Shown one piece after another: positions 3,840 to 15,993 of a stretch of DNA of 63,823 nt. Source of the stretch: Oscillospiraceae bacterium. Lineage in GTDB: Bacteria; Bacillota; Clostridia; Oscillospirales; JAKOTC01. Position 1 is the first letter of the stretch. Every line of letters starts with the position of its first letter. The position numbers were made by a program, and so were the translations under genes. The stretch is taken from positions 8,530-72,352 of the forward strand of contig DAOPZJ010000005.1 of assembly GCA_035353335.1 (NCBI GenBank), read 5' to 3'. The notes below the pieces were generated by a model. It saw only the letters and a program-made list of their open reading frames with translations. It was not told where the DNA came from and searched no databases.

Positions 3840-5801
3840 ATGGGGAAAGCGAAAAAGAGCATCCGCGGCGTTTTTATGCCGATTGCCCTTTGTCTGTTTT
3901 TGTCATTCGGCTGCGCCTATAATCCCCTGCCCAAAGCGGCGCAATACGGCGGCGCGGCTCCGGAGAGTACGTTGTTTGTGAAGAAGATCGGGAATTTGCC
4001 GGACAATTTTATGATGGGCGCGGACGTCTCCACCGTCCTCTCGCTCGAGAAAAGCGGCGTGAAATTTTATGATTTCGACGGCAAGGAGCAGGACCTCTTC
4101 CTGACGCTTGCGCAAAACGGGATCAATTATATCCGCGTTCGGGTCTGGAACGATCCGTTCGACAAAAACGGCAACGGGTACGGCGGCGGCAACTGCGATA
4201 TCGAAAACGCGGTCTCTGTCGGAAAACGGGCGACGGCTGCGGGCCTGAAGCTTTTGGTGGACTTCCACTATTCCGACTTCTGGGCCGATCCGGCCAAACA
4301 ACAGGCCCCGAAGGTCTGGGCCGGCATGGACGTCGGGCAAAAAAGCGCCGCGCTCTATGATTATACGCTTTCCTGTCTGACAAAGCTGAAAAAGGCCGGC
4401 GTCGACGTCGGAATGGTGCAGCTCGGCAACGAGACGACTTCCGGGCTTGCCGGGGAGACCGCCTGGAAAAACATCTGCGCGCTGATGGCGGCGGGCGCCA
4501 AAGCATGCCGGGAAGTCAACCGGGACGCGCTGATCGCGGTGCATTTCGCCAATCCCGAAAAGGCCGCGAATTATGAGAAATTCGCCCGGAATCTCGATAA
4601 ATATCAAGTGGATTACGACGTCTTCGCCTCGAGTTATTATCCCTACTGGCACGGCACGCTCGAAAACCTCACGGCGATTTTGAAAAAGATCTCCGACACC
4701 TACGGCAAAAAGGTGATGGTCGCCGAGATGTCCTATGCCTATACGCTTTCGGACGGCGATTTTCACGCAAACGTCATCGGCGGGGAGAAAAACTACGATA
4801 AAAATTATCCGCTGACGGTGCAGGGTCAGGCGACCGCGGTCGCCGAGACCATTCGGGCGGTGGCCGACGTCGGGGAAGCGGGTATCGGATTCTTTTACTG
4901 GGAGCCGGCGTGGATCGGCGTCGGCGGGAAAAACTTTGAAGAAAACAGCGTTTTATGGGAAAAATACGGCAGCGGCTGGGCTTCCTCGTATTCGGCGGAA
5001 TATGATCCGGGCGACGCGGGTATTTATTACGGGGGCTCCGCCTGGGACAATCAGGCGATGTTCGACGGAACCGGCCATCCCCTGGAGTCGCTGAAAGTTT
5101 TCAAATACGTCTATACCGGCACGGAGTGTGAGACCGCCGTCGACGCGGTCGAAGACGTCGAACTGTCCGTGCGGCTGAAAGAGGAGATCAAACTGCCCGA
5201 AACCGTGACCGCGGTCATGAACGACGGGACCGCGCAGACGGTTCCGGTCGTCTGGGAACCGGCCGACCTTGCCGCGATGTCCAACGGAGCGGTCGCAAAG
5301 TATGTGATCAAAGGTACAGCGGGCGGAAAACAGGCAGTCTGTTATCTTTCGATGGCCGAACGCAATTACATCGAGAATTACAGCTTCGAAAACGAAGACG
5401 TCTCGATGTGGAAAGCCGTCAATCTCTCGGATATCGATGAGCTCTTTGTGCTCGACAAATCCACCGACGCGCTGACCGGAAACAGGTCTTTCCATTTCTG
5501 GAGCGAGGGCGAAGTGGAGTTCACGCTCGAGCAGACGGTGAAAAACTTAAAACCCGGAGCTTATAACTTTACCCTTTCGATTCAGGGCGGCGACGCCGAA
5601 ACGCAGAATATCTACATTTACACCGTTGTCAACGGGGTGAAAAAGACCGCGCCCGCCGAGATCAGCTCGTGGCGGGTCTGGGCAAATCCGAAAATCAAAA
5701 ACGTCCCGGTAAACGGTGAGATCACGGTGGGGATCTATGTCAAATGCAGCGCCGGAGCGTGGGGCACGATCGACGACGTGCTGCTCAACCCGGCCGAATA
5801 A
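3840..5801 (+). CDS. ganB: Arabinogalactan endo-beta-1,4-galactanase (GH53) with a Big_4-like domain and a C-terminal carbohydrate-binding-like domain; lipoprotein or secreted
   Basis: GH53 signatures are present: GADVSTVLSLEKSGVKFYD, INYIRVRVWNDP, VDFHYSDFWADPAKQ, VQLGNET and MVAEMSY. Big_4-like VTAVMNDGTAQTVPVVWEP follows. The signal peptide ends LSFGC. The start was chosen at the ATG 8 nt after AAAGGA. Confidence 0.9.
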   Translation: MGKAKKSIRGVFMPIALCLFLSFGCAYNPLPKAAQYGGAAPESTLFVKKIGNLPDNFMMGADVSTVLSLEKSGVKFYDFDGKEQDLFLTLAQNGINYIRVRVWNDPFDKNGNGYGGGNCDIENAVSVGKRATAAGLKLLVDFHYSDFWADPAKQQAPKVWAGMDVGQKSAALYDYTLSCLTKLKKAGVDVGMVQLGNETTSGLAGETAWKNICALMAAGAKACREVNRDALIAVHFANPEKAANYEKFARNLDKYQVDYDVFASSYYPYWHGTLENLTAILKKISDTYGKKVMVAEMSYAYTLSDGDFHANVIGGEKNYDKNYPLTVQGQATAVAETIRAVADVGEAGIGFFYWEPAWIGVGGKNFEENSVLWEKYGSGWASSYSAEYDPGDAGIYYGGSAWDNQAMFDGTGHPLESLKVFKYVYTGTECETAVDAVEDVELSVRLKEEIKLPETVTAVMNDGTAQTVPVVWEPADLAAMSNGAVAKYVIKGTAGGKQAVCYLSMAERNYIENYSFENEDVSMWKAVNLSDIDELFVLDKSTDALTGNRSFHFWSEGEVEFTLEQTVKNLKPGAYNFTLSIQGGDAETQNIYIYTVVNGVKKTAPAEISSWRVWANPKIKNVPVNGEITVGIYVKCSAGAWGTIDDVLLNPAE

Positions 5802-11701: not shown

Positions 11702-12661
11702 TCAATATGCCCCGTTCTTGATGCAGCAGTCAACGAAATAATCCGTGGTTTCGGGCGTGATATCCAGCGCCTGCATATCGGGATAGATCTCATACAGCAA
11801 ACCGCCGTTGAAACAGCCCAGCTTTTCTTTCAGCGCAAGGACTTCTTTTAATATTTTTTCTTTGTCACCGGTCGGAAGCGTGCGCTGCAAATCCGCGGTC
11901 GTGGAAAAGCAAATCCTCCCGCCCGCGTTCTTTGAAAGCCAGTCGACGTCGTACACCGTCGGCTGGTGCAGCTCGATGACGTCAATGCCGCATTCGATCA
12001 GATCGTTGATGATCGCGTTGTTCTTGCCGCAGGAATGCATATAAGTAACCAGCCCGTGGGCTTTGGCCGTTTGAAACATCTTTGCGTACCAGGGCTTAAA
12101 GACCTCGCGCCACACTTCCGGCGAGACCATCAGACGATCCTGCAGACCCCAGTCGTCGCCGCCCCAGACGGCGTCAACGCCGCATTCGGCGTATGCTTTG
12201 ATCATTTCGCACTGGAAATCCACGATCTTGTCGCCGAGAGACAGAATCGCCTCACGCTCGTTATAAAGATAGTCAAAAAGATTCTCCATGCCGACCAGAT
12301 AATGCATCCGCTCGAAAAAATAACTCGCCATTGCGCCGAAGACAAACAGATCCTGTTTCTTCAGCTCATCGACGCGCTCTTTGAGGCCTTCAAACCGCAA
12401 CTCAATCGCAAGCGGCGGGGCTTTAAAATCACGGATGGCCTGAAGGGACTTTAACGGGTGGTCCAGGACCTGCCCGATGGTCTTGTCGCCCTCAAGCTTG
12501 CTGAACCGATAAAGCCATTCGTTGGGCTCAACGGCTTTGTAATTGACGCACATGCAGTCGCCCATGCTCTTATACGGCTCGCCGCAGTACCCCGTGTTCA
12601 GCGGCACCCACTCGGGACCTTTGAATTGGATTGCCCGGTAGAAATTTTCCCGTCTCGTCAT
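11702..12661 (-). CDS. Uroporphyrinogen-decarboxylase (URO-D) family protein, MtaA/CmuA-like methyltransferase type
   Basis: The length and motifs are typical of the URO-D-fold family: GGDDWG, MHSCG (Zn-ligand-like H-x-C) and a TIM-barrel pattern. Confidence 0.6.
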   Translation of the reverse strand: MTRRENFYRAIQFKGPEWVPLNTGYCGEPYKSMGDCMCVNYKAVEPNEWLYRFSKLEGDKTIGQVLDHPLKSLQAIRDFKAPPLAIELRFEGLKERVDELKKQDLFVFGAMASYFFERMHYLVGMENLFDYLYNEREAILSLGDKIVDFQCEMIKAYAECGVDAVWGGDDWGLQDRLMVSPEVWREVFKPWYAKMFQTAKAHGLVTYMHSCGKNNAIINDLIECGIDVIELHQPTVYDVDWLSKNAGGRICFSTTADLQRTLPTGDKEKILKEVLALKEKLGCFNGGLLYEIYPDMQALDITPETTDYFVDCCIKNGAY

Positions 12662-12763
12662 CTTTTGTTTCCTCCCGGAAAATGATATGGATCATAAAAG
12701 GCAAATATGGAATACGTTCATTATACAAAAAATTTTTCCCGTTGTAAATCAGGATTTTATATT

Positions 12764-12787
12764 TAAAAAAAACGCCTTGCGGCGTTC
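12764..12787 (-). terminator. Terminator of the four-helix-bundle gene
   Basis: On the minus strand, AACGCC-GCAA-GGCGTT is followed by TTTTTTTT. Confidence 0.6.
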
Positions 12788-12897
12788 CGGTATTTTAGGG
12801 TATATCGATTGACTTCTGACATCCGGGCGCGACTCCGAGGCACACACCCAAACTCATGCCATATTGCCGTTTGTCTCTTCTCCCTGATATATATATA

Positions 12898-13272
12898 CTA
12901 TTCATTGTTATTCTCTTTTGCGGTATTGATGGAGGAGATGAGCATAACCCTGATAGTTGCACACGTTGAATCCAACTGTTTAAACTCCGGTTCATCGATA
13001 TACCCGGTTTTATGTAATAATTCGAGCCAGTATCCGGTCTCGTTTGCTTCTTTCAGTGCGATTTGCAATTTTGCGATAAAATCGGATTTGCTGTGAGCAT
13101 ACTGTGCTTCCCGGATATTCGCTCCGATTGATGTACCGATTCTGCCGAGTTGAGTTGAGATTATGGTTTCATGGTTTTCTTTCAACCGTTTGATCAGGTT
13201 GATGATGATAACGGCAAAAGATATCGATTGCTCGGAGAGCATATCATTACGCACATTCTCACTCCCTTCCAT
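12898..13272 (-). CDS. Four-helix-bundle protein (23S rRNA intervening-sequence protein / Avd-like, PF05635-type)
   Basis: The diagnostic central motif is GTSIGANIREAQYAHSKSDFIAKLQIALKEANETGYWLELL. The protein is 124 aa and the gene is markedly AT-rich relative to its neighbours. Confidence 0.85.
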   Translation of the reverse strand: MEGSENVRNDMLSEQSISFAVIIINLIKRLKENHETIISTQLGRIGTSIGANIREAQYAHSKSDFIAKLQIALKEANETGYWLELLHKTGYIDEPEFKQLDSTCATIRVMLISSINTAKENNNE

Positions 13273-13278
13273 GGCTAT

Positions 13279-13307
13279 ATTTTACAGCAGAGAAGGGGAT
13301 TCGTCAA
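13279..13307 (-). promoter_or_regulatory. Promoter of the four-helix-bundle gene; geometry predicts a leaderless mRNA
   Basis: On the minus strand: TTGACG (13307-13302), a 17-nt spacer, TAAAAT (13284-13279), then only 6 nt (ATAGCC) before the ATG. No SD is present. Confidence 0.5.
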
Positions 13308-13308
13308 G

Positions 13309-13496
13309 AATGAAGTGTCGGCTGCGGCCGACGTGAAGTATCTCGCTTGCGGCGAGAAATGAAGTGTTTCGCAAATTGCGATTTGCGAAACATGAAGCGA
13401 AGTGTTCCTGCTCTTATGTGTCCGCAGACACACTTCATTGCCGAAGGCAACTTCATGTCTGAAGGACTCTTCATGTTCCAACGGAACACTTCATTA
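13309..13496. repeat. Heptad/hairpin ladder: TGAAGTG-type heptads (4-5 direct, then 4 inverted) alternating with unique GC-rich mini-hairpins
   Basis: Forward heptads lie at 13311, 13334, 13360, 13393 and 13399. Reverse copies (CACTTCAT-type) lie at 13431, 13450, 13468 and 13487. Every interval holds a different short perfect hairpin. The outermost 9-mers (13309-13317 and 13487-13495) are exact reverse complements. Confidence 0.8.
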
Positions 13497-13523
13497 AAAA
13501 AACACGCTTTACGCGTGTTTTTT
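13495..13523. terminator. Bidirectional terminator hairpin
   Basis: AAAAAAACACGC-TTTAC-GCGTGTTTTTTT. Confidence 0.6.
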
Positions 13524-13697
13524 TGGAGGCACCACCGAGAGATCGACAAGTTCGATTCTCGTAGAGGTTAAAAAATCAAAAAACGCCCAATGGGCGTCTT
13601 TTGATTTTTTTGGAGGCACCACCGAGAGATCGACAAGTTCGATTCTCGTAGAGGTTAAAAAATCAAAAAACGCCCAATGGGCGTCTTTTGATTTTTT
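13524..13697 (-). repeat. Two tandem 87-bp modules, each a CCA-ended tRNA-Cys 3-prime-half mimic plus a 20-bp hairpin terminator
   Basis: The units at 13524-13610 and 13611-13697 look identical by eye. Each begins (plus strand) with TGGAGGCACCACCGAGA, identical to the last 17 nt of the adjacent tRNA-Cys including CCA. Each ends with AAAAAATCAAAAAACGCCCAATGGGCGTCTTTTGATTTTTT. Confidence 0.85.
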
Positions 13698-13772
13698 TGG
13701 AGGCACCACCGAGAATCGAACTCGGGAATAGAGGTTTTGCAGACCTCTGCCTTGCCGCTTGGCTATGGTGCC
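13698..13772 (-). tRNA. tRNA-Cys (GCA), CCA encoded
   Basis: The minus strand reads GGCACCATAGCCAAGCGGCAAGGCAGAGGTCTGCAAAACCTCTATTCCCGAGTTCGATTCTCGGTGGTGCCTCCA. It folds as a cloverleaf with anticodon loop CTGCAAA. Confidence 0.95.
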
Positions 13773-13816
13773 GGAGATGAATGCGAGGGTGTATTTGTCG
13801 ATACACCCTCGTTTTT

Positions 13817-13892
13817 TGGAGCGGATGACGAGGCTCGAACTCGCTACCTCAACCTTGGCAAGGTTGCGCTCTACCGGATGAGCTACATCCGC
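13817..13892 (-). tRNA. tRNA-Gly (GCC), CCA encoded
   Basis: GCGGATGTAGCTCATCCGGTAGAGCGCAACCTTGCCAAGGTTGAGGTAGCGAGTTCGAGCCTCGTCATCCGCTCCA, with anticodon loop TTGCCAA. Confidence 0.95.
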
Positions 13893-13982
13893 ACATTTGC
13901 GTCAGACGGAGACGCTTGGGGCAAATCTGCGCCGGCAGAAGAATTGCGGTGCAGGGAAGGTGTTGGGACAGCGCGGGGTAAG

Positions 13983-14058
13983 TGGTGCCTCCGGTCGGAA
14001 TTGAACCAACGACACGGGGATTTTCAGTCCCCTGCTCTACCAACTGAGCTACAGAGGC
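13983..14058 (-). tRNA. tRNA-Phe (GAA), CCA encoded
   Basis: GCCTCTGTAGCTCAGTTGGTAGAGCAGGGGACTGAAAATCCCCGTGTCGTTGGTTCAATTCCGACCGGAGGCACCA, with anticodon loop CTGAAAA. Confidence 0.95.
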
Positions 14059-14061
14059 AAG

Positions 14062-14138
14062 TGGCGACTCGGAAGGGGGTCGAACCCTCGACCTCTAGCG
14101 TGACAGGCTAGCGTTCTAACCAACTGAACTACCGAGCC
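14062..14138 (-). tRNA. tRNA-Asp (GTC), CCA encoded
   Basis: GGCTCGGTAGTTCAGTTGGTTAGAACGCTAGCCTGTCACGCTAGAGGTCGAGGGTTCGACCCCCTTCCGAGTCGCCA, with anticodon loop CTGTCAC. Confidence 0.95.
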
Positions 14139-14141
14139 ATT

Positions 14142-14217
14142 TGGTGGGAACAACAGGGCTCGAACCTGTGACCCCCTGCTTGTAAGGCAGATGCTCTCCC
14201 AGCTGAGCTATGCTCCC
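14142..14217 (-). tRNA. tRNA-Val (TAC), CCA encoded
   Basis: GGGAGCATAGCTCAGCTGGGAGAGCATCTGCCTTACAAGCAGGGGGTCACAGGTTCGAGCCCTGTTGTTCCCACCA, with anticodon loop CTTACAA. Confidence 0.95.
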
Positions 14218-14261
14218 CCACGCGTCCCGGAGAACCTCTCTGCCAGCCGGCGACGGATAAC

Positions 14262-14291
14262 ATAATAACACAATCCGTCTTGCCTTGTCAA
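14262..14291 (-). promoter_or_regulatory. Promoter of the tRNA operon
   Basis: On the minus strand, TTGACA (14291-14286), a 17-18-nt spacer, then TTATTAT, about 45 nt upstream of tRNA-Val. Confidence 0.55.
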
Positions 14292-14325
14292 TACCAAAAA
14301 CCAATTTTTTTGATTTTTTCCGGGT

Positions 14326-15993
14326 TTAAAATAATCCGCTGATGAGGCCGTTCCCATCGATGTCAATGGCGTTTGCCGCGGGCGTTTTGGGCAATCCCGG
14401 CATCGTCATGATATCGCCGGTGAGCGCGACGACAAAGCCCGCGCCGGCGCAGAGGCGAAGGTCGCGGACGGTCAGTTTGAAGTTTTTCGGCCTGCCGAGT
14501 TTCTTGGGGTCGTCGCTCAGAGAGTATTGGGTTTTGGCGACGCAGACGGGTGAGGCGCCGAAGCCGAGAGCACGGATTTCTTCGAGCCGCCTGAACGCCG
14601 AATCCTCGTAGGTCACTTCGTCCGCGCCGTAAATTTCCCGGGCAATGCGCCCGATCTTTTCGGTGACCGTCATCTCGTCGGCGCAGAGCGGTTTGAAGTC
14701 TCCGCCCCGATCGGCAGCCGCAGCAACCTTTTCGGCAAGCAGCGCAGCGCCTTTTCCGCCCTCGAAAAAACCGTCGCTGACCGCGCAGTCGGCTCCGTTT
14801 TGTTCCGCGATCCGGACAACGGCGGCGATCTCGGCAGGCGTGTCGGTCGGGAAGCGATTGACCGCGACCACGACCGGGAGGCCGTATTTTTTGAGATTCG
14901 CGATGTGTGCCGCAAGGTTTACGCCGCCTTGTTCCGTCGCTTCAACGTTTTCGATGCAGAGTTCGGCTTTGGCAATGCCCGCGTTATGCTTGAGCGCGCG
15001 CACCGTGGCGACCAGAACGGCCGCGGACGGCGTCAGACCGGCGGCGCGGCATTTGATGTCAAAGAATTTCTGAGCGCCCAGATCGGCTCCGAAGCCGGCC
15101 TCGGTGATGCAGTAGTCGGCCAGTTTGAGCCCGAGTTTGGTGGCGCGCGCCGAGTTGCAGCCGTGGGCGATGTTGGCGAACGGGCCGCCGTGCATCAGGC
15201 AGGGCGTGCCCTCGAGGGTCTGGACGAGATTCGGGTTGACCGCGTCTTTGAGCAGCGCGGCCATTGCGCCCTGCGCGTTCAGCTGGCGGCAGAACACGGC
15301 GTTTGAGTCGAGGTCGTAGCCGACCAAAATATCCCCGAGCCGTTTTTTGAGATCGTCGATATCGGCGCAGAGACAGAGCACCGCCATCACTTCGGAGGCG
15401 GCGGTGATGTTGAAGCCGTCGGAGCGCATAAAGCCGTTGGCTTTGCCGCCGATGCCGACGATGATCTCGCGCAGCGCGCGGTCGTTCATGTCCATGCAGC
15501 GGCGGAAGGAAATACGCCTTGAATCAAGCCGCAAAGCGTTCCCGTGGTTGATGTGGTTGTCGATCAGCGCGCACAGCAGGTTGTTCGCCGCCGTGACCGC
15601 GTGGATATCGCCTGTAAAATGGAGGTTGATGTCCTCCATCGGAATCACCTGTGAATACCCGCCGCCGGCGGCACCGCCCTTGATGCCGAATACCGGCCCG
15701 AGTGACGGTTCACGCAGCGCAATGACGGCGTTCTTTCCGATGTGTTTCATCGCCTGTCCAAGCGCGACGGTGGTCGTGGTCTTGCCCTCTCCCGCCGGCG
15801 TGGGGTTGATCGCGGTGACCAGAATCAATTTACCGTCGGGACGGTCCGCCGTTCGCGAAAAAGCCGATTGTGTGATTTTCGCTTTATAATTTCCGTAACA
15901 CTCAAGCTCATCGGAGAGGATACCGAGCTGCTCGGCGATTTTTGCAATCGGCAGCGGTTTGGCCGCCTGGGCGATTTCGATGTCGGAGAGCAT
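14326..15993 (-). CDS. fhs: Formate--tetrahydrofolate ligase
   Basis: Full-length FTHFS with N-terminal MLSDIEIAQAAKPLPI, the P-loop region PTPAGEGKTTTTVAL and GGAAGGGYSQV. Confidence 0.97.
   Translation of the reverse strand: MLSDIEIAQAAKPLPIAKIAEQLGILSDELECYGNYKAKITQSAFSRTADRPDGKLILVTAINPTPAGEGKTTTTVALGQAMKHIGKNAVIALREPSLGPVFGIKGGAAGGGYSQVIPMEDINLHFTGDIHAVTAANNLLCALIDNHINHGNALRLDSRRISFRRCMDMNDRALREIIVGIGGKANGFMRSDGFNITAASEVMAVLCLCADIDDLKKRLGDILVGYDLDSNAVFCRQLNAQGAMAALLKDAVNPNLVQTLEGTPCLMHGGPFANIAHGCNSARATKLGLKLADYCITEAGFGADLGAQKFFDIKCRAAGLTPSAAVLVATVRALKHNAGIAKAELCIENVEATEQGGVNLAAHIANLKKYGLPVVVAVNRFPTDTPAEIAAVVRIAEQNGADCAVSDGFFEGGKGAALLAEKVAAAADRGGDFKPLCADEMTVTEKIGRIAREIYGADEVTYEDSAFRRLEEIRALGFGASPVCVAKTQYSLSDDPKKLGRPKNFKLTVRDLRLCAGAGFVVALTGDIMTMPGLPKTPAANAIDIDGNGLISGLF

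Follow-up and report, generated by a model that had tools for sequence, protein, structure and literature searches.

A 63.8-kb window of an Oscillospiraceae bacterium (contig DAOPZJ010000005.1; the window is the whole stretch of DNA that was analysed, and its coordinates are used unless a locus is named) contains at 13309–13495 a ladder of about five ATGAAG-type and five CTTCAT-type linkers, which alternate with seven private GC-rich hairpins. The ladder belongs to a conserved, polar, terminator-attached and structure-constrained family of elements that lie at tRNA 3' ends in Clostridia of the gut and rumen and are partially linked to genes of the IVP/S23p family (PF05635); these are firm observations. 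The unit is a bidirectional terminator and, 2–3 nt on, a ladder of some ten units of a hairpin plus a 6–9-nt linker, arranged in two opposed blocks around a short centre. Its terminator side usually begins with the base next to the CCA of a tRNA gene, or next to a remnant of such a gene. On the far side the unit either stops within about 6–13 nt of the last linker or extends through a promoter and an IVP gene to a small cargo gene, which varies. Our preferred reading, held with somewhat less than even confidence, is that the ladder is a copy of a dispersed, structure-constrained, terminator-attached extragenic element, apparently undescribed, which resembles repetitive extragenic palindromes (REP) and bacterial interspersed mosaic elements (BIME) and has IVP as its likely partner.

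The family was collected in two ways. IVP homologues with 63–79% identity, taken from one genome per species, gave 80 loci in Oscillospiraceae, Acutalibacteraceae, Ruminococcaceae and metagenome-assembled genomes of other Clostridia; in about 76 of them a terminator, a ladder and usually a promoter lay, in this order, directly upstream of the IVP gene. A metagenome scan for the ladder only, using the pattern ATGAAG…ATGAAG…CTTCGCTTCAT (which matches 27 known type-A loci), yielded 120 loci, 87 of them genuine ladders. The number of distinct copies was 136 overall. Two main forms were distinguished: type A has AATGAAG/CTTCATT linkers, and in type B the linkers read GTGAAGT/ACTTCAC, linker 1 (the first linker behind the terminator) being CTAAGTG and the centre containing CACTTAA. 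Other linker flavours were found in the same contigs with a generic detector (GAAAT/ATTTC, TGATAT/ATATCA, ATGATG/CATCAT and TATCAT/ATGATA), and a further pair, GATGAAATC/GATTTCATC, occurs in locus L336; all flavours contain RTGA. Between flavours the left and right linkers always switch jointly (ATGAAG/CTTCAT, GTGAAG/CTTCAC, GAAAT/ATTTC, TGATAT/ATATCA, ATGATG/CATCAT), and therefore the two blocks are either paired or one motif read in opposite orientations. Within a ladder every linker is the same; pairing alone would allow each rung to drift, so this uniformity argues for a sequence-specific reader or for homogenisation. The number of linkers per ladder was about 5+5 in four subfamilies, as estimated by eye rather than by a systematic count.

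A preliminary description of the window had reported the ladder (13309–13496) and knew of no family with such a layout. Its sequence was confirmed as described, with seven different hairpins, and no described family was found: a scan against Rfam 15 (cmscan of 12500–14500, both strands, permissive filters, E≤10) gave no match within the ladder, the best sub-threshold scores being 24.6 bits for rsmX (gathering threshold 56) and 19.6 bits for Gut-1 (gathering threshold 50), and a full-text search of the literature found no description of it. That account had named a known REP/BIME-like repeat family scattered around the genome as a ground for refutation, and this applies by half: the ladders do form a repeat family over many loci and genomes and behave in a REP/BIME-like manner, but the family is not a known one. 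The end of a decayed mobile element, another of its suggestions, does not agree with an architecture that is kept in more than 130 distinct copies. A phage origin was rejected as well: the specific ladder pattern gave one chance match in 2.9 M viral contigs, and a loose three-linker pattern gave chance matches in coding DNA only.

Placement was scored in the 128 ladders with sufficient flank. A same-strand tRNA gene ends just upstream in 64 of these; more than 17 anticodons are represented, several ladders per contig are possible (the window has one), and one ladder follows a tmRNA gene, which likewise ends in CCA (L034, 2388–2943). The intervening terminator is of the bidirectional type (A run, stem, T run). 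The 5' arm of its hairpin begins 0–1 nt past the tRNA end in 38/64, and the gap from the hairpin to linker 1 was 2–3 nt in 68/128 ladders, which is the mode. In some subfamilies the terminator stem is extended, and the last 6–10 nt of the tRNA pair with bases just before linker 1 (L028, L029, L057, L069, L071, L087). An apical motif, UUUGUCUACCAGACAAA, is common to the terminator hairpins of many loci behind different tRNAs, and the terminator therefore belongs to the unit. The polarity is strict. It is the ATGAAG side that is turned towards a tRNA 3' end in 61 ladders, and the opposite side in none; a terminator-like palindrome lies just left of 71 ladders and just right of none. Ladders away from a tRNA often retain a few bases of a tRNA 3' end, as does the ladder in the window with its 17-nt end of tRNA-Cys. 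Occupancy varies, since further tRNA genes on these contigs end in plain terminators; a strict generic detector, which under-calls ladders with adjacent linkers, gave 50 of 108 terminal tRNAs as a lower bound.

In the window, minus is the gene-sense strand, because the tRNA operon (14217–13698) and the four-helix-bundle gene (13272–12898) both run on it; all parts of the ladder are given on this strand. A terminator (13496–13524) flanks the ladder on one side and the promoter of the PF05635 gene on the other. The sense order is terminator, linker 1, hairpins A–D with AUGAAG linkers, a degenerate linker 5, the centre, CUUCAU-type linkers with hairpins E–G, and promoter. Linker 1 (13487–13495, AAUGAAGUG) is followed by hairpin A (13475–13487, GUUCC-GUU-GGAAC), linker 2 (13468–13474, AUGAAGA), hairpin B (13457–13467, GUC-CUUCA-GAC; GUCC-UUC-GGGC in sister contigs), linker 3 (13450–13456, AUGAAGU), hairpin C (13439–13449, UGCC-UUC-GGCA), linker 4 (13431–13438, AUGAAGUG) and hairpin D (13417–13432, UGUGUC-UGCG-GACACA). 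The centre (13398–13417) comprises the degenerate linker 5 (AUAAGAG) and a spacer, then GGAACACUUCG, the last segment of which is complementary, along 11 bp, to linker 1 together with the 5' arm of hairpin A. The right block consists of right linker 1 (13391–13397, CUUCAUG), hairpin E (13367–13390, a 10-bp stem with a CGCA loop), right linker 2 (13358–13366, CACUUCAUU), hairpin F (13341–13357, UCUCGC-CGCAA-GCGAGA), right linker 3 (13332–13340, UACUUCACG), hairpin G (13318–13331, UCGGC-CGCA-GCCGA) and, as the final unit, right linker 4 (13309–13317, again CACUUCAUU). The right linkers number five when CACUUCG of the centre is counted as the first; the earlier count of four to five direct and four inverted heptads is revised to five left (the fifth degenerate) and five right. 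Linker spacing is irregular, 18–35 nt. Seven occurrences of the motif ATGAAGTG and its complement were counted in the window, where 1.47 were expected; four of these fall within 13310–13494.

The same ladder was present in the same-species contigs (n = 8), with two substitutions, both in hairpin B (GUCCUUCAGAC to GUCCUUCGGGC). This hairpin has only 3 bp in the window and 4 pairs in the sister contigs (GUCCUUCGGGC). A cUUCGg tetraloop had been claimed for one stem (UGCCUUCGGCA); the stem fits only a UUC triloop on 4 bp, and the tetraloop register disrupts it.

Folding and a search for compensatory changes had been proposed as checks, and both came out in favour of a structure. The two strands of the ladder were far more stable than shuffled sequences (z of −5.4 and −5.7, about −5.5). 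A perfect hairpin of at least 5 bp was found in 51% of 591 inter-linker segments and in 2.7% of shuffles; 437 of the 591 segments are distinct sequences. In an alignment of 14 type-B sequences 96.1% of the cells were paired, and double changes were seen in 14 pairs, against 7.4±1.3 in shuffles (0/500) and 2–5 in slid controls. The covariation is confined to the hairpins; the linker helices are invariant within a subfamily. RNAalifold placed linker–linker helices between the hairpins in both subfamilies tested. Without exception, linker 1 and the 5' arm of hairpin A match the centre by complementarity: the resulting 10-bp helix was 99.6% paired across 27 type-B ladders, with a swap of U-A (14) for G-C (13), and in type A wide covariation was seen by eye (GUGUUCC/GGAACAC, GCGCGC/GCGCGC, GUCGCCC/GGGCGAC). 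The most economical model is that linkers 2–5 would pair with right linkers 4–1 to give a rod with three- and four-way junctions, and that the centre, as apical loop, would pair with linker 1 beside or in place of hairpin A. This register is supported by a rung-specific variant: in a single subfamily, the left tandem AUGAAAAAUGAAG and the right terminal CUUCAUUUUUCAU are perfectly complementary. For the window copy, the nested arrangement of the preliminary description, in which linker 1 pairs with the last linker (9/9; the outer 10-mers, 13309–13318 and 13486–13495, are 100% complementary), is one possible register, and the comparative data favour pairing of linker 1 and the hairpin A 5' arm with the centre. 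Minimum-free-energy folds were inconsistent from locus to locus, as identical linkers permit many registers, and hairpin counts from such folds of half-ladders were unreliable.

The link with IVP was assessed from both samples. Among the 73 ladder-ascertained copies with at least 300 nt of downstream sequence, the next gene downstream was an IVP gene in only 12, and 61 (84%) were without one. The link thus looked stronger in the IVP-ascertained sample than it is: IVP genes of this clade are almost never without a ladder, but most ladders are solo. Still, when 2,281 open reading frames (ORFs) from more than 200 ladder loci were clustered all against all, IVP (93 loci) was the sole recurrent gene family in the flanks. 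The IVP subfamilies go with linker flavours: IVP1 was found with TGAAG linkers in 82 cases, IVP2 (115 aa) with GAAAT linkers in 14 and a third IVP type with TGATAT linkers in one, the exception being a truncated IVP1-like gene behind GAAAT linkers. These counts cover all IVP genes with readable upstream sequence, six more (five of the IVP1 type and the IVP2-type gene of L055) being below the linker-count threshold. The match would be expected of a cognate protein–site pair, and also of common descent of linked parts. In the diversity-generating retroelements (DGRs), the protein Avd works with a reverse transcriptase and acts on structured RNA. IVP and Avd are homologues (PMC10053308), and IVP proteins are toroidal homopentamers according to Lin 2006, as cited in PMC4990558. 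The agreement between a pentamer and about 5+5 linkers is suggestive only.

Among the IVP loci with a following ORF, the ATG of that ORF overlaps the IVP stop (…AAATGA…) in 22/36. This overlap of an IVP stop with the start of a small gene (L008–L087) suggests translational coupling to exchangeable cargo. The cargo genes encode GNAT acetyltransferases, a SAM methyltransferase, and P-loop kinase-like, cytidine-deaminase-like, FMN reductase, DUF4279 and MazG proteins. Protein searches returned thousands of IVP1 and IVP2 homologues at 75–90% identity, mostly on contigs of about 1 kb; apparently the ladder/IVP modules break metagenome assemblies, as multi-copy repeats do.

Copies of the unit with sharply defined borders are found at different sites. 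One module of 1,019 nt comprises the terminator, the ladder, the promoter, the IVP2 gene with a MazG-like gene overlapping it, and a conserved tail; it differs by 1 nt between a tRNA-Pro(CGG) site (L330) and a tRNA-Arg(ACG) site (L336). The identity runs from the CCA that both tRNAs share to …CTCTTTCGCA, and the module proper therefore starts at the base after CCA; in L336 another terminator-plus-ladder unit follows directly. Identical IVP2 proteins were found in several contexts. TGAAG ladders that are 90–97% identical lie behind different tRNAs, or with and without IVP, and their identity stops 2–7 nt before linker 1 or after the terminator on one side and 6–37 nt past the last linker on the other. 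Type A ends are inverted repeats (AATGAAG...CTTCATT) and type B ends are not. Tandem duplicates of ladders are frequent (L017, L078, L081, L084, L283, L306). Behind a single tRNA, ladders of differing flavour can also alternate with genes (L010 1727–3600, L063 1995–5111, L029 181–913, L336 2248–2560), an arrangement like that of a cassette array. In L281 and L305 a complete TGAAG ladder is immediately succeeded by a truncated one of the GAAAT type, reduced to its last left linker, its centre and its right half, so ladders can break and become juxtaposed.

A conserved non-coding tail of about 50 nt (…UUACCUCG…CCGUUU…CUCUUUCGCA) was seen in L330 (1845–2247), L010 (3370–3500) and L030 (about 3880–3960), and the next terminator-plus-ladder unit begins right after its final CA, echoing the junction at the tRNA CCA. 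As a general cassette end the tail (…CCGTTT…CTCTTTCGCA) was rejected: it closes L010, L030 and L330, and the pattern was found in few loci. In some contigs (L329, 1–1049; L341, 55–942; L349, L350, L355 and L358, downstream of the MazG-like gene), genes for large serine recombinases and phage-type PD-(D/E)XK/DUF2800 genes adjoin the IVP2 module on one side or the other; in L329 and L349 the inserted elements carry large serine recombinases. The region is therefore a landing site for other mobile DNA as well; such elements appear to integrate between the tRNA CCA and the terminator, and in the 3' end of MazG.

According to the preferred reading, that of a dispersed REP/BIME-like element, left linkers 2–5 would zip onto right linkers 4–1 whenever the region becomes single-stranded, either in a read-through transcript of the tRNA operon or in unwound DNA. 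A rod of short helices with one or two hairpins per junction would result, in which linker 1 and the 5' arm of hairpin A pair with the apical centre. The selected feature would be this folded array of identical short boxes. It may serve as the recognition structure for an agent that copies the unit from tRNA 3' end to tRNA 3' end, and probably also for the IVP pentamer; by analogy, IVP would stand to the ladders as a RAYT (REP-associated tyrosine transposase) gene stands to REP sequences. With its built-in terminator, each copy would form a harmless boundary ('stop-spacer-(start)') downstream of a tRNA gene that is transcribed strongly.

Several observations weigh against this reading. The clustered flanks (more than 200) contained neither an enzyme able to copy the unit nor a recurrent recombinase or transposase. 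The invariance of the linker–linker helices within a subfamily makes their register a prediction, and pairing of linker 1 with the centre would be a pseudoknot relative to the rod. The tRNA-Pro/tRNA-Arg case is a single clear pair; the borders of duplicates vary and tandem copies begin inside the terminator, so that slippage or unequal exchange may explain part of the spread; and no target-site duplication was seen at the junctions compared. The correlation of IVP subfamily with flavour could reflect common descent of linked parts, the samples not being independent, and the IVP of the window is net acidic by our own count, unlike the basic Avd. Finally, the signs as to the kind of nucleic acid are mixed. 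In the stems of the 136 ladders, 2,162 Watson-Crick pairs were counted and, as transition mismatches, only 4 G.T and 7 A.C; unbiased counts thus gave no strand asymmetry and picked neither strand. The loops of one half are the reverse complements of those in the other (left TTC, TGC, TTGC, TAC, CAAG, TGAC; right GAA, GCA, GTAA, GTA, CTTG, GTCA), so that the ladder resembles a single unit, 'hairpin with GNA/GNRA loop + CTTCAT', arrayed twice in opposite orientations. C-GNA-G triloops, e.g. GCGAAGC, are classic extra-stable DNA mini-hairpins. The near absence of G.T pairs and the mirror-image loops would point to DNA, or to a role for both strands.

Other signs may point to sense RNA: the strict polarity, the U.G pairs in the linker-1/centre helix, and the ladder as sole 5' leader of IVP at some loci. 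They bear on an alternative that we consider rather unlikely, in which the ladder is a cis-acting structured RNA. Read-through of the tRNA terminator would fold into the rod, and this fail-safe would stop the transcript, have it cleaved (e.g. by RNase III or Y) or sequester it; the rod would shield whatever promoter or gene comes next from the tRNA promoter, which is very strong, and would be a 5' leader where IVP lacks a promoter. The tie to the upstream transcription unit, with the ladder 2–3 nt past the terminator, and the -35 box that adjoins the last linker in IVP-linked copies are as this explanation would have them. At L016, L017, L020 and L027 the ladder runs directly into the IVP ribosome-binding site, so a sense RNA must exist there; the wobble pairs of the linker-1/centre helix are legal on the sense strand only, and the same-species change in hairpin B (GUCCUUCAGAC to GUCCUUCGGGC) adds a U.G and a C-G pair on that strand. 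The IVP-bearing intervening sequences (IVSs) of 23S rRNA are RNase III substrates (PMC4990558). An RNA would, however, be unusual in having G.U as rare as A.C in its stems and loop sets that make both strands alike; little sense RNA is expected behind an efficient-looking terminator; and structure alone leaves the identical linkers within one ladder unexplained. Of the suggestions in the preliminary description, the structured RNA finds support in a conserved single-strand fold with covarying hairpins, be it in RNA or in single-stranded DNA; no Rfam family matches it.

Still less probable, in our estimate, is that the ladder serves the IVP pentamer as a binding array. The five or so identical linkers of each half, presented between hairpins as spacers, would wrap the five-fold ring, as (G/U)AG repeats wrap TRAP, with the complementary half competing, and the outcome would be autoregulation, or packaging and protection of the ladder nucleic acid. 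It would account for linkers that are conserved in sequence next to hairpins conserved in shape only, for the count of about 5+5 (by eye) in four subfamilies and for the pairing of IVP subfamily with flavour in 97 of 99 cases, and it is in keeping with a homopentameric IVP (PDB 2RLD, 5 chains; PMC4990558, in its citation of earlier work) homologous to Avd (PMC10053308). Against this, the 84% of ladder-ascertained copies without an adjacent IVP are compatible with action in trans only, the protein is net acidic (own count) and its binding here putative, and the correlation may be linkage.

We think it very unlikely that the ladder is a by-product without a function of its own, be it a slippage-prone palindromic region or the relic ends (att debris) of integrative elements at tRNA 3' ends. 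Integration is especially frequent at tRNA 3' ends, the ladder of the window has tandem 87-nt units and partial tRNA 3' ends beside it, large serine recombinase genes adjoin some modules, and tandem ladder duplications are common; but a detailed architecture with compensatory changes is kept in more than 130 copies from many genera, the polarity is strict, and the window has no distal att copy. A double-stranded operator or iteron array, in which a DNA-binding protein reads the heptads in the duplex and controls the adjoining promoter, as the preliminary description had considered, would suit a motif in direct and inverted orientation beside a promoter, with left and right motifs changing jointly as for one protein's site, but is hardly credible given spacing of 18–35 nt without helical phasing, spacers strongly selected as palindromes yet variable, which duplex binding does not need, and the lack of a conserved promoter or gene behind most copies (no IVP gene downstream of 61/73). 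Further readings of the linkers were dropped (stop/start codons, Rex/CRP half-sites, arm-type integrase sites, Tn7- or Mu-like multi-site ends and ssoA-like origins), because they explain the repeats but not the obligatory variable hairpins, or fail on the linker variants.

Compared with known systems, the closest analogues would be REP/BIME with RAYT in behaviour and the integron attC site in logic, and the ladder fails the defining features of both. Like REP/BIME and the REP doublets (REPINs) with RAYT of Enterobacteria and Pseudomonas, ladders are extragenic, palindromic and, across the loci collected, multi-copy, lie at the 3' ends of transcription units and have hairpin units in opposed orientation; a small protein gene flanked by its cognate repeat, with most copies solo, is a logic that can be applied to IVP and the ladder. 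Unlike REPs, whose hairpin sequence is conserved, ladders have hairpins that all differ and keep only the 6–9-nt linkers; they are strictly tied to a terminator and tRNA 3' ends and have no GTAG-type 5' tetranucleotide, no Y1/HUH (RAYT) gene was found in more than 200 flanks, and the putative partner is a four-helix-bundle pentamer without known catalytic activity. In attC sites, too, conserved short inverted heptamers pair within one strand as protein-binding boxes while the sequence between is only structured, and ladders bound small variable genes (GNAT, methyltransferase, kinase-like, deaminase, MazG) and form ladder–gene arrays (L010, L063) as integron cassettes do. The ladder differs in that it has no R''/L''/L'/R' boxes or RYYYAAC/GTTRRRY, that its linkers are RTGA-type, with 5+5 boxes against 2+2, that no IntI or other recombinase recurs near it, and that its cassettes bring their own promoter and terminator to a tRNA 3' end instead of attI.

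Miniature inverted-repeat transposable elements and composite repeats (BOX, RUP, Correia/NEMIS and bcr1; Firmicutes, Neisseria) share with the ladder a size of 150–200 bp, a strong predicted fold, dispersal, occasional tandem copies and, for type A, ends that form an inverted repeat. They are set apart by the ladder's fixed orientation to the upstream gene, by the lack of a target-site duplication at the ladder junctions compared and of a known cognate IS, and by near-identical copies, whereas ladders diverge strongly between genomes and keep the fold. As in TRAP or CsrA/Rsm-type RNAs, a short identical motif occurs about five times with variable spacers, and the candidate partner is a ring-shaped homo-oligomer; unlike there, hairpins are obligatory as spacers, every ladder has a second, complementary block and binding is putative. 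In Avd systems both structured RNA and GC-rich hairpins with GNRA-type loops are required. Such a GC-rich hairpin or cruciform by the DGR target genes, and the homology of IVP to Avd (PMC10053308), recall the ladder, in which the hairpins instead form an array with repeated linkers. In the clustered flanks no integrase recurred, and no reverse transcriptase, template repeat or variable repeat was found near the ladders examined. The 23S rRNA IVSs with an S23p/IVP ORF (Leptospira, Coxiella, Xanthomonas) have the same protein family in a stable-RNA operon beside a large inverted-repeat structure, and they too have long been suspected of being selfish or mobile in origin; the Coxiella IVS has tandem heptamers of variable copy number upstream of its ORF (PMC4990558). 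Those IVSs lie inside helix 25 or 45, and their inverted repeats enclose the ORF in one long RNase III stem, whereas the ladder consists of many short helices, lies wholly upstream of the ORF and past the tRNA terminator, and is mostly without an ORF.

The surroundings of the ladder in the window are as follows, all features being on the minus strand. The operon Val-Asp-Phe-Gly-Cys ends with tRNA-Cys(GCA) at 13698–13772 (ARAGORN; Rfam tRNA, 63.5 bits), the 3' end of which sets the start point of the downstream repeats; in the Rfam scan of 12500–14500 only the five tRNAs were above threshold, and no rRNA was found. The operon has a near-consensus promoter with an extended -10 at 14262–14291 (TTGACA-18-TGxTATTAT), so a strong stop or boundary downstream could matter. 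Two perfect tandem 87-nt units were identified at 13518–13691 by repeat analysis of the window; each comprises a bidirectional terminator, AACCUCUA, a scrambled tRNA-Cys 3' half with its T arm inverted, and the last 17 nt of tRNA-Cys. The unit is present once or twice in same-species contigs and looks like fold-back/template-switch debris or att-like scars at a tRNA 3' end. The 17-nt end (TGGAGGCACCACCGAGA) occurs in three copies, all upstream of the ladder; used as query, it revealed no distal att repeat elsewhere in the 63.8 kb, and no integrase gene is next to the ladder. The three terminators earlier proposed between ladder and operon were found as hairpins at 13502–13516, 13583–13597 and 13670–13684. 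The first belongs to the bidirectional intrinsic terminator A7-ACACGC-loop-GCGTGT-T7 (13496–13524), directly 5' of the ladder, which has the only clean T run; the two matches of a terminator scan within the ladder, hairpins G and E, have the tails ACTTCATTCT and CTTCATTTCT, without a T run.

At the other end, a sigma-70-type promoter (TTGACG-17-TAAAAT, 13279–13307) has its -35 box beginning 2 nt past the last linker, as had been noted before, and a promoter directly adjoins the last linker in IVP-linked relatives also. The IVP/S23p four-helix-bundle gene (12898–13272) was assigned by Pfam (PF05635, 90.3 bits with a cut-off of 33.8, E 1.2e-25), by its closest solved relative (PDB 2RLD, 5 chains, E 1.3e-29) and by the starts of its homologues. 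The annotated ATG (13272) has no ribosome-binding site; the true start is probably the GTG at 13254, 7 nt past GGGAG and aligned with the MRND start of the homologues, so that IVP would probably be 118 aa long with an mRNA leader of about 18 nt. No cargo gene follows; the next gene, about 240 nt away, encodes a URO-D family protein. Among the relatives, only L021 shares a neighbour of the window (FTHFS), in a different order.

IVP/S23p proteins have been known since 1993 and number thousands, occurring in rRNA intervening sequences, in cas loci and, as Avd, in DGRs. We know of no function for them outside DGRs. One large clade is now tied to a precise, conserved and easily synthesised nucleic-acid structure and to a genomic rule (base after the tRNA CCA, terminator, ladder), which makes the old question of IVP experimentally addressable. 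The ladder is common in gut and rumen Clostridia, where it apparently breaks assemblies (most IVP homologues are on contigs of about 1 kb), and independently of IVP it is of interest for its conserved short linkers and free hairpins, its predicted stacked three- and four-way junctions and its predicted loop-to-flank pseudoknot. It is possible, though we regard it as doubtful, that the ladder is the ligand of the five-fold IVP ring and that the two form a small mobile cassette system, which installs itself after the tRNA CCA and, by extension, inside rRNA as IVSs, bringing its own terminator and promoter and carrying small cargo enzymes. If so, this would be the first function for the IVP/S23p family and a new class of elements that target stable-RNA genes.

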